From NCBI GenBank assembly GCA_049512075.1, contig JBEKXL010000001.1, forward strand, positions 336,410 through 376,409: 40,000 bases of DNA. The letters run 5' to 3'. This document shows positions 24,679-25,100 of the stretch, piece by piece. Below the pieces are notes generated by a model. The model was not told the origin of the DNA. It searched no databases and saw only the letters and a list, made by a program, of their open reading frames with translations. Both the position numbers and the translations under genes were made by a program. The stretch comes from Candidatus Bathyarchaeia archaeon. GTDB taxonomy: Archaea > Thermoproteota > Bathyarchaeia > Bathyarchaeales > Bathycorpusculaceae. The number at the start of each line of letters is the position of its first letter. The first letter of the stretch is position 1.

Positions 24679-24924
24679 ATGAAGACTAAAACGGTAAAGG
24701 TGGCTATAGATAGCTTCGGCTCTTTTCTAGGCAGAGAAAAGGGCTGCTTAGTCGTAAGAGACCAAGAACGCAAAGTAAAGAAGTATCCTCTCTTCGAGAA
24801 CTCGATAGCGGAGATAAGGCTCTCTAGCGGAAATACGGTATCGGCAGGAGCGTTAGCGAGTTGTGCCTTTTGGGACATAAATCTAATCGTAACAACTCAA
24901 TTCGGTAATCCGATAGCAGTTCTA
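24679..24924 (+). pseudogene. cas1: N-terminal fragment of a second Cas1 gene
   Basis: The first 82 aa (MKTKTVKVAIDSFGSFLGREKGCLVVRD...FWDINLIVTTQFGNPIAVLK) align with Cas1 at 12425-13450. I count 50/82 identities by hand. Similarity ends exactly where AAGCGCGCGCGA (24924-24936) begins, and the rest of the ORF to 25053 is unrelated. Confidence 0.8.
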
Positions 24925-25100
24925 AAGCGCGCGCGACGACTTAAGATGCTAATTTCTCGCGAAATGTTAGATGTAAATCATGTAATAAATATCAAAATAG
25001 ACCGAAAGAAAGATGACTTGATTTTTCAAGTTGACCTCAAGTCGAATAAATGAACCAACTAAACCTTTAAGCGCGCGCGCTATATTCCATGTGATTTTGC

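Follow-up and report, generated by a model that had tools for sequence, protein, structure and literature searches.

The sequence at 24624-25058 is probably a dead chimera that arose when a single deletion joined two adjacent, co-directional genes at a GC run that may be break-prone. It lies within the 40,000-nt stretch of Bathyarchaeia DNA analysed here (the window), which belongs to a genome (G000) of 2.73 Mb in 86 contigs that is 99.8 per cent complete. Judged by its sequence, the 124-aa open reading frame (ORF) at its centre, which starts MKTKTVKVAIDSFGSFLGREKGC, is a fusion of two unrelated genes, namely the 5' part of a stand-alone Cas1 gene and the 3' end of a probable DUF553-family gene. 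The derivation of the ORF tail from that second gene and the making of the chimera by deletion are new here. The Cas1 stub is an ordinary pseudogene remnant, a case of gene decay, and its features are collected with those used for comparison in Table 1.

Table 1. Positions of the chimera, its flanking palindromes and the other Cas1 boundaries of the genome; coordinates are those of the window unless a contig is named, and a slash separates the two sides of a boundary.
Feature	Position	Strand	Sequence	Basis or remark
Upstream region of Cas1 stub	24545..24678	+		blastn to full-length relatives, alignment, motif match by eye
Cas1 stub, codons 1-83, N-terminal domain up to inter-domain linker	24679..24927	+		BLASTP, Pfam, six-frame
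Chimeric 124-aa ORF: 83 Cas1 codons, 1 junction codon, 40 DUF553-tail codons	24679..25053	+		
Junction tract, length-variable	24927..24935	.	G(CG)4	alignment of metagenome contigs
3' end of putative DUF553-family gene (last 40 codons, stop, ~5 nt), in frame with stub	24931..25058	+		nt and aa identity
Intact 341-aa Cas1, comparison copy, different lineage	12425..13450	-		BLASTP, Pfam, tree
Canonical intergenic GC palindrome, upstream of stub	24398..24414	.	AAGCGCGCGCGCTAA	
Canonical GC palindrome after chimeric ORF	25068..25084	.		next homology block starts at edge
Alternating GC palindrome, sequence form			AGCGCGCGCGCT	
C2 Cas1 boundary, codon 19	C2:64815-64830		GTAGCGCGCGCGCT / GGAGAAAGG	
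C22 Cas1 boundary, codon 317	C22:36890-36910		TGTGCGCGCGCGCTG / ATTAAC	
C7 Cas1 piece, 5' side	C7:37400-37575		CCACGCGCGCGA / CTTGAACCT	
C7 Cas1 piece, 3' side	C7:37400-37575		GACTTCGTA / GCGCGCATG	

Parentage of the chimeric reading frame

Compared by BLASTP with the intact Cas1 of the window, the ORF shows 50 of 83 identities and 66 of 83 positives in a gap-free alignment (E 3e-37), in agreement with the roughly 60 per cent (50/82, counted by hand) given in a preliminary description of this DNA. Pfam places Cas_Cas1 (PF01867) on residues 9-94 at 25 bits (cut-off 22.3; profile positions 2-85). In a six-frame comparison with the whole genome the Cas1 similarity ends at 24927, with the AAG of codon 83 (24925-24927), and is directly followed by CGCGCGCG at 24928-24935; the truncation that had been described is real, and its position moves from codon 82 to codon 83. 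As had also been described, the stub keeps its own start codon (ATG 24679) and a Shine-Dalgarno-like GGAGAAGG upstream of it (24664-24671).

The N-terminal beta-strand domain of Cas1 (PF01867) is present in the stub. The C-terminal helical domain with its metal-binding catalytic residues is absent, the remainder of the ORF being DUF553-gene sequence, and a stub without that catalytic domain is predicted to be incapable of nuclease or integrase activity. When the intact copy is aligned to the Cas1 structure 4N06, the cut would fall at the inter-domain linker. Next to the stub lie genes for an ABC transporter and a membrane protein.

Sequence 5' of the start codon survives as well. In blastn, homology to the full-length relatives (L013, L042) begins at 24624, and a motif-level match of TTTTAGGCTCAATTCAGAAAAGG with TTCTAGGCACAATTCATAAACGG, made by eye, reaches ~24549; a CGGAATAA box lies ~45 nt before the ATG and is conserved, and in an alignment of the relatives the CGGAATAA and GGAG blocks are invariant. 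No homology upstream of 24545 was found in the genome itself or in relatives. A conserved region of 95-130 nt precedes Cas1 in the window and in L013, L042, L044, L047, L049 and L052, with two TTCTAGGCAC-like boxes and one CGGAATAA box, and may be a promoter or operator. Nothing consistent was found downstream of Cas1 in a search for an inverted copy of the TTCTAGGCAC box, and 24.0-25.9 kb yielded no Rfam, promoter or terminator pattern matches.

The 40 C-terminal residues have a different origin. A protein search restricted by length brought up P0014, a protein of 81 aa whose last 40 residues match the tail at 88 per cent aa identity, and window 24931-25058 is identical to L035:2597-2724 at 119 of 128 nt (93 per cent). 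In L035 the 81-aa ORF sits after a PF04473 (DUF553) ORF, and in G146 the corresponding sequence forms the C-terminal end of a single intact ORF of 352 aa, the 40 tail residues themselves falling outside the PF04473 domain. Because the tail derives from the end of an unrelated gene, probably of the DUF553 family, the ORF is best read as a deletion chimera. The rest of this second gene was not found anywhere in the genome of the window, and in the five genomes checked no Cas1 of the stand-alone family lies within 50 kb of its homologue. The idea that the DUF553 gene is cargo of Cas1 elements was rejected (0 DUF553 matches in 95 Cas1 loci), and 24937-25067, when compared with the 147-bp repeat (34596-34742), proved to be no copy of it.

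At the join the parental Cas1 (L042, L044, L047) reads CTAAAGAGCCTT and the parental DUF553 gene (L035, L036) reads CTCTTGCGCGACGAC. Across it the Cas1 relatives run GTTCTAAAG-AGCCTTAAC, the DUF553 homologues TACTCTCTT-GCGCGACGACTTAAG, and the window GTTCTAAAG-CGC-GCGCGACGACTTAAG. The break had been placed exactly at a GC palindrome. A GC tract does lie there, but it is no simple intergenic palindrome: its right part, GCGCGACGAC, is coding sequence of the DUF553-family gene, which makes the break a deletion junction between two genes. The GC palindromes reported on either side of the stub are genuine (24400-24411 and 25070-25081).

These features would be accounted for by a history in which a Cas1-solo gene of a separate lineage, whose upstream region and first 83 codons would be what survives, stood next to a DUF553-family gene, of which the last 40 codons would remain. 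One deletion would have joined AAAG to GCGCG with a one-base G overlap, the GCGCG coming from the DUF553 gene, and the short junction tract would then have grown by slippage, to (CG)4 in the window through a gain of two CG units, or to (CG)5. Alternating GC runs are probably break- or slippage-prone DNA, which may form Z-DNA or hairpins, and deletions would start at their edges.

The lineage of the Cas1 parent can be placed. The genome holds three long copies of the family (the window copy, a copy on C2 that is missing codons 1-18, and one at a terminus of C43) as well as fragments on C7 and C22, and a distant CRISPR-type Cas1 on C37 (31 per cent identical). A search upstream of the C2 copy for its first 18 codons found none. 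The stub is 57-62 per cent identical to each of the three long copies, and 60 related genomes contained no relative closer than 60 per cent. Its closest relatives come from a scan of metagenome contigs: L042 (90 per cent aa and 84 per cent nt identity) is full length in DNA although interrupted by an in-frame stop at codon 256; in L043 (91 per cent identity) a 2-nt insertion has destroyed the ATG, and the gene is cut after codon 77. Intact full-length versions of 344-345 aa were found in L044, L045 and L047 at 78 per cent aa identity.

A maximum-likelihood tree joins the stub to L042 and L043 (97/94 support) as part of a seven-row clade (100/99) that contains no resident long copy, and the stub falls with the Bathyarchaeia stand-alone Cas1 family, apart from CRISPR-type Cas1. 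A scan of GTDB species genomes gave 183 stretches of this family, many of them partial, and the 79 loci fetched are nearly all labelled Candidatus Bathyarchaeia or Bathyarchaeota. Identity and tree together support the earlier view that the stub belongs to a Cas1 lineage separate from the resident copies and is no recent duplicate. Two pieces were considered as the rest of the stub gene and set aside: the C7 piece (aa 209-265) is only 57 per cent identical to the L042 lineage, and the C22 piece comprises the last 28 aa only, too few for assignment, and is nearer to L051. From the stub alone it follows that no fewer than three or four Cas1 lineages have been present in this genome, which loses them quickly.

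Directly 3' of Cas1, several loci carry a 107-aa gene with the motif HELYHH (HExxH, metalloprotease-like), at L042:9045-9368, L051:5725-6045, L052:9039-9356 and, in the genome of the window, C22:36477-36794. On C22 this gene is intact beside the 28-codon Cas1 tail.

The preliminary description further held that the region had been hit by Cas1 elements more than once. An older, second Cas1 copy does stand in a variable region, and insertion of a second Cas1 element at the stub is plausible. The surviving Cas1-derived stretch runs from 24624 by blastn (~24549 by motif) to 24927, or ~300-380 bp. Terminal repeats, a target duplication and other element genes were sought beside the stub and not found; around the intact copy no consistent terminal inverted repeats or target-site duplication were seen, and PolB is not encoded by any of the nine ORFs that were scanned in the vicinity of the stub and of the intact copy. 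Loci with full-length relatives (76-88 per cent nt identity) have no homology to one another beyond the Cas1 ORF and at most 130 nt before it, and their neighbouring genes are different. In L043 an ABC-transporter gene 6.8 kb from the stub is 86 per cent identical to the one beside the window stub, which suggests that the stub copy has been in its present neighbourhood since before the window organism and the L043 organism split. Window 7.2-32.7 kb is a mosaic whose pieces are found elsewhere in same-genus relatives.

The interval L043:8797-14326, between the sister stub and the ABC-transporter gene, contains an 870-aa helicase-like ORF and ORFs of 247 and 621 aa, a gene set that looks like a defence island.

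Length variation at the junction and the fate of the product

The seven metagenome contigs that were fetched differ from the window at just three places within 24244-25120. The junction tract is longer by a CG unit, (CG)5, in all seven; the tail differs from the window by one A-to-T change; and the palindrome at 25068, 140 nt from the junction tract, is 2 nt shorter in three. In exact look-ups across several sources the (CG)4 allele, encoding 124 aa (P0163), was present in 5 contigs and the (CG)5 allele, encoding 91 aa (P0001), in 12. The junction tract is unstable in length today, and the 2-nt changes seen directly fit the view of GC runs as fragile DNA. In the majority allele, (CG)5, the tail is shifted out of frame; since its frame differs between alleles, the tail is not conserved as coding sequence.

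Sequencing through CG repeats is difficult, and assemblies disagree on the length of the tract, as would be expected had reads been wrongly joined at a low-complexity CG tract. Yet this join, flanks included, recurs in 17 contigs from different samples (JGI, ENA, Logan, NCBI), and its occurrence in independent contigs takes an assembly error practically out of consideration.

It might also be supposed that the stub is functional as a short protein: as an N-terminal domain on its own it would bind and damp full-length Cas1, much as truncated transposases inhibit their parents. The start codon, the Shine-Dalgarno-like box and the conserved upstream region are all kept, and the cut appears to fall at a domain boundary, as such a product would require. 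Nevertheless, the C-terminal tail changes frame between alleles, and the sister copy in L043 is without a start codon and cut elsewhere; the same-lineage relatives are broken differently, L042 by its stop and L043 at both its start and codon 77. A truncation ancestral to the stub and L043 was rejected, as the cuts differ (codon 83 against codon 77) and L043 has no DUF553 tail. The stub is fixed and identical in 17 of 17 carrying contigs, but these contigs are nearly identical overall and their identity is uninformative on selection.

A similar ambiguity attaches to the rate of substitution. Between the stub and its relatives L042 and L043 dN/dS is 0.06-0.11, a value that reflects either recent inactivation or continued selection on the N-terminal domain, and that is expected if the divergence occurred while the genes were whole. 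Among short relatives in metagenomes and related genomes, the ends fall at codons 29-95 (that of G029 near codon 95) and the tails are unrelated; 15 such relatives, several of them cut by contig ends, have different end codons. With N-terminal stubs cut at so many codons there is no conserved family of N-domain-only proteins, the finding that might have overturned the original interpretation, and a functional short protein is given little credence here. More probably the stub, left by deletion between the two parental genes, has no functional product.

Alternating GC runs at break points

The window contains 49 matches to AGCGCGCGCG with at most one mismatch (counted on two strands, each palindrome twice), against 1.6 expected. 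Genome-wide there are 581 alternating GC runs of at least 8 nt, ~10 times the expectation from composition; 85 per cent of them lie outside long ORFs, and the base before a run is mostly A, the base after it mostly T.

A number of homologous blocks in and around the window were recorded alongside these runs. The 170-aa membrane-protein gene at 25082-25610 has an 84.5 per cent identical paralogue at C4:42540-43089, and the block that the two places have in common begins at the edge of the palindrome that follows the chimeric ORF. A glycosyltransferase block (25759-27110) is 92-95 per cent identical in three same-genus genomes, at other genomic places, and its homology begins exactly at the palindrome 25759-25768. 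The 147-bp repeat has two internal ATTACATCTGACATTACAA boxes and ~34 copies here, with dozens in the same-genus genomes G001 and G002; its copies are usually flanked by longer conserved sequence, not by GC runs, so the true unit is larger. Opposite window 34742-34823, the G002 locus L138 (G002:C15) has ~2.4 kb inserted where this genome has a GC run only, and the inserted sequence includes the radical-SAM fragment gene found here at 6187-7243.

All five boundaries of Cas1 fragments in this genome, the window break included, lie 0-2 nt from an alternating GC run, where the chance of a random position lying near a run is ~0.5 per cent. In nine other palindrome-rich genomes, 8 of 23 Cas1-fragment boundaries have a run within ~15 nt, with ~2 per cent expected, in a test of 20 further fragments, two of which possibly duplicate two GTDB loci; the eight are 5' boundaries without exception. 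In the GTDB set, 4 of ~25 Cas1 boundaries are at a run. The enrichment is general, and weaker for non-Cas1 fragments and junctions: 5.5 per cent of 1212 intragenomic homology-block ends lie at most 3 nt from a run (0.5 per cent for random and 1.2 per cent for shifted positions), 3.5 per cent of 346 partial-paralogue boundaries of non-Cas1 genes lie as near to one (against 0.6 per cent), and several junctions between this genome and G002 are at GC runs.

Selection sparing a neighbouring gene was considered as a source of this pattern. It predicts a variable spacer between run and fragment, contrary to the 0-2 nt precision observed, and therefore GC runs mark real rearrangement end points. It is a replicated rule in these Bathyarchaeia that a truncated gene or rearranged block stops exactly at a short alternating GC run, and if the runs cause the breaks they would be a main driver of gene loss and of mosaic islands in widespread uncultured archaea.

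In L118 (5800-6100) a Cas1 cut at its 5' side near codon 85 is preceded by GTGCGCGCGC, and a tRNA-like 3' end (GGTGAGTTCAAATCTCACC...CCA) lies ~190 nt upstream of it. That this cut, like the window break, adjoins a GC run at nearly the same codon is statistically unremarkable given ~25 boundaries, and no hot spot there is claimed.

The window junction fits the idea of a fragile site less well than do the C2 and C22 boundaries, where a full palindrome of 10-12 nt stands at the break, because the Cas1 parent has no GC tract at codons 83-84 and the DUF553 parent only GCGCG, which alone is too short for unusual DNA structure.

There is some reason to consider that GC palindromes are the target sites of an active process which produced the join, in place of passive breakage, and left the stub as a by-product, although on balance this is unlikely. 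By analogy with integron cassettes at attC, a recombinase might shuffle gene-sized segments between palindromes; alternatively, by analogy with Cas1 at the borders of CRISPR repeats, a Cas1-solo integrase might join DNA at palindrome edges. Break points at the very edge of complete runs would suit cuts at site borders, and runs bracket the C7 Cas1 piece, the DUF553 tail and the 147-bp repeat (34596-34742) on both sides. However, the association between runs and breaks is not specific to Cas1, the flanking runs are not identical copies, and the analysis found no recombinase candidate and no pair of empty and filled sites with a duplicated palindrome.

The distribution of the motif among genomes bears on the same question. 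In 151 genomes of the family (G000-G174) the AGCGCGCGCT count ranges over 0-115 per genome, that of a reversed control word over 0-8, and the former varies widely within genera (3, 10, 21 and 104 in one genus, for example), as if the motif proliferates. High counts go with the presence of the stand-alone Cas1 family: genomes with the family are richer in palindromes (odds ratio 7 at >=10 per Mb, p 1e-5; median 17.9 per Mb against 0 in large complete genomes), in a comparison whose density thresholds were set after the data had been seen, whose genomes are interrelated and in which genome size is a confounder. Against an active role for Cas1, many genomes with a full-length copy have no palindromes (G008, G012, G026 and G033 among them), and the within-genus contrasts are just 13 positive, 5 negative and 3 zero.

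That the palindromes are sites at which an enzyme, possibly the stand-alone Cas1 integrase, cuts and joins DNA, so that gene-sized and smaller pieces, Cas1 fragments among them, are inserted or lost, seems highly improbable. Were such an enzyme to act at GC runs it would constitute a new recombination system, and if it worked at palindrome edges, its repeat-directed integration would resemble a step between Cas1 transposons and CRISPR arrays. A deletion between neighbouring genes at a break-prone GC run remains the preferred account of the chimera.

Comparison with known systems

Decayed casposon copies occur beside intact ones in Methanolobus psychrophilus R15 and Methanococcoides burtonii MetBur-C3 (Krupovic et al. 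2014, PMC4046053). The likeness to the present case is that Cas1 is untied to a CRISPR array and present in several copies per genome, some of them inactivated and without recognisable ends. The differences are that PolB is absent from the nine ORFs scanned here, that terminal repeats and a target duplication were not found, and that the present remnant retains just 83 codons, fused to an unrelated gene at a CG tract, in a Bathyarchaeia host. A literature search for a link between Bathyarchaeia and casposons returned nothing beyond one passing mention.

The mobile GC clusters of yeast mitochondrial DNA and the REP/BIME elements of bacteria are short GC-rich palindromes in AT-richer spacers. 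Like the runs described here, they vary in copy number between close relatives and tend to mark rearrangement end points. The core in these Bathyarchaeia is, by contrast, a pure alternating GC run, with neither a RAYT-like transposase nor target duplication shown. Integron arrays share with the window the arrangement of gene-sized blocks between imperfect palindromes and an order of blocks that differs among relatives, but the window has no integrase, no attI and no single array, and the palindromes are spread genome-wide, which makes this a resemblance only.

The closest parallel to the mechanism proposed here may be the alternating (CG)n tract, which forms Z-DNA and is reportedly a hot spot of deletion and slippage. 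The tracts in this genome differ in being short (6-13 nt), in occurring at ~10 times the expected number, and in lying for the most part between genes with A/T on either side. As at those hot spots, their length changes in 2-nt steps and deletions end at the tract.
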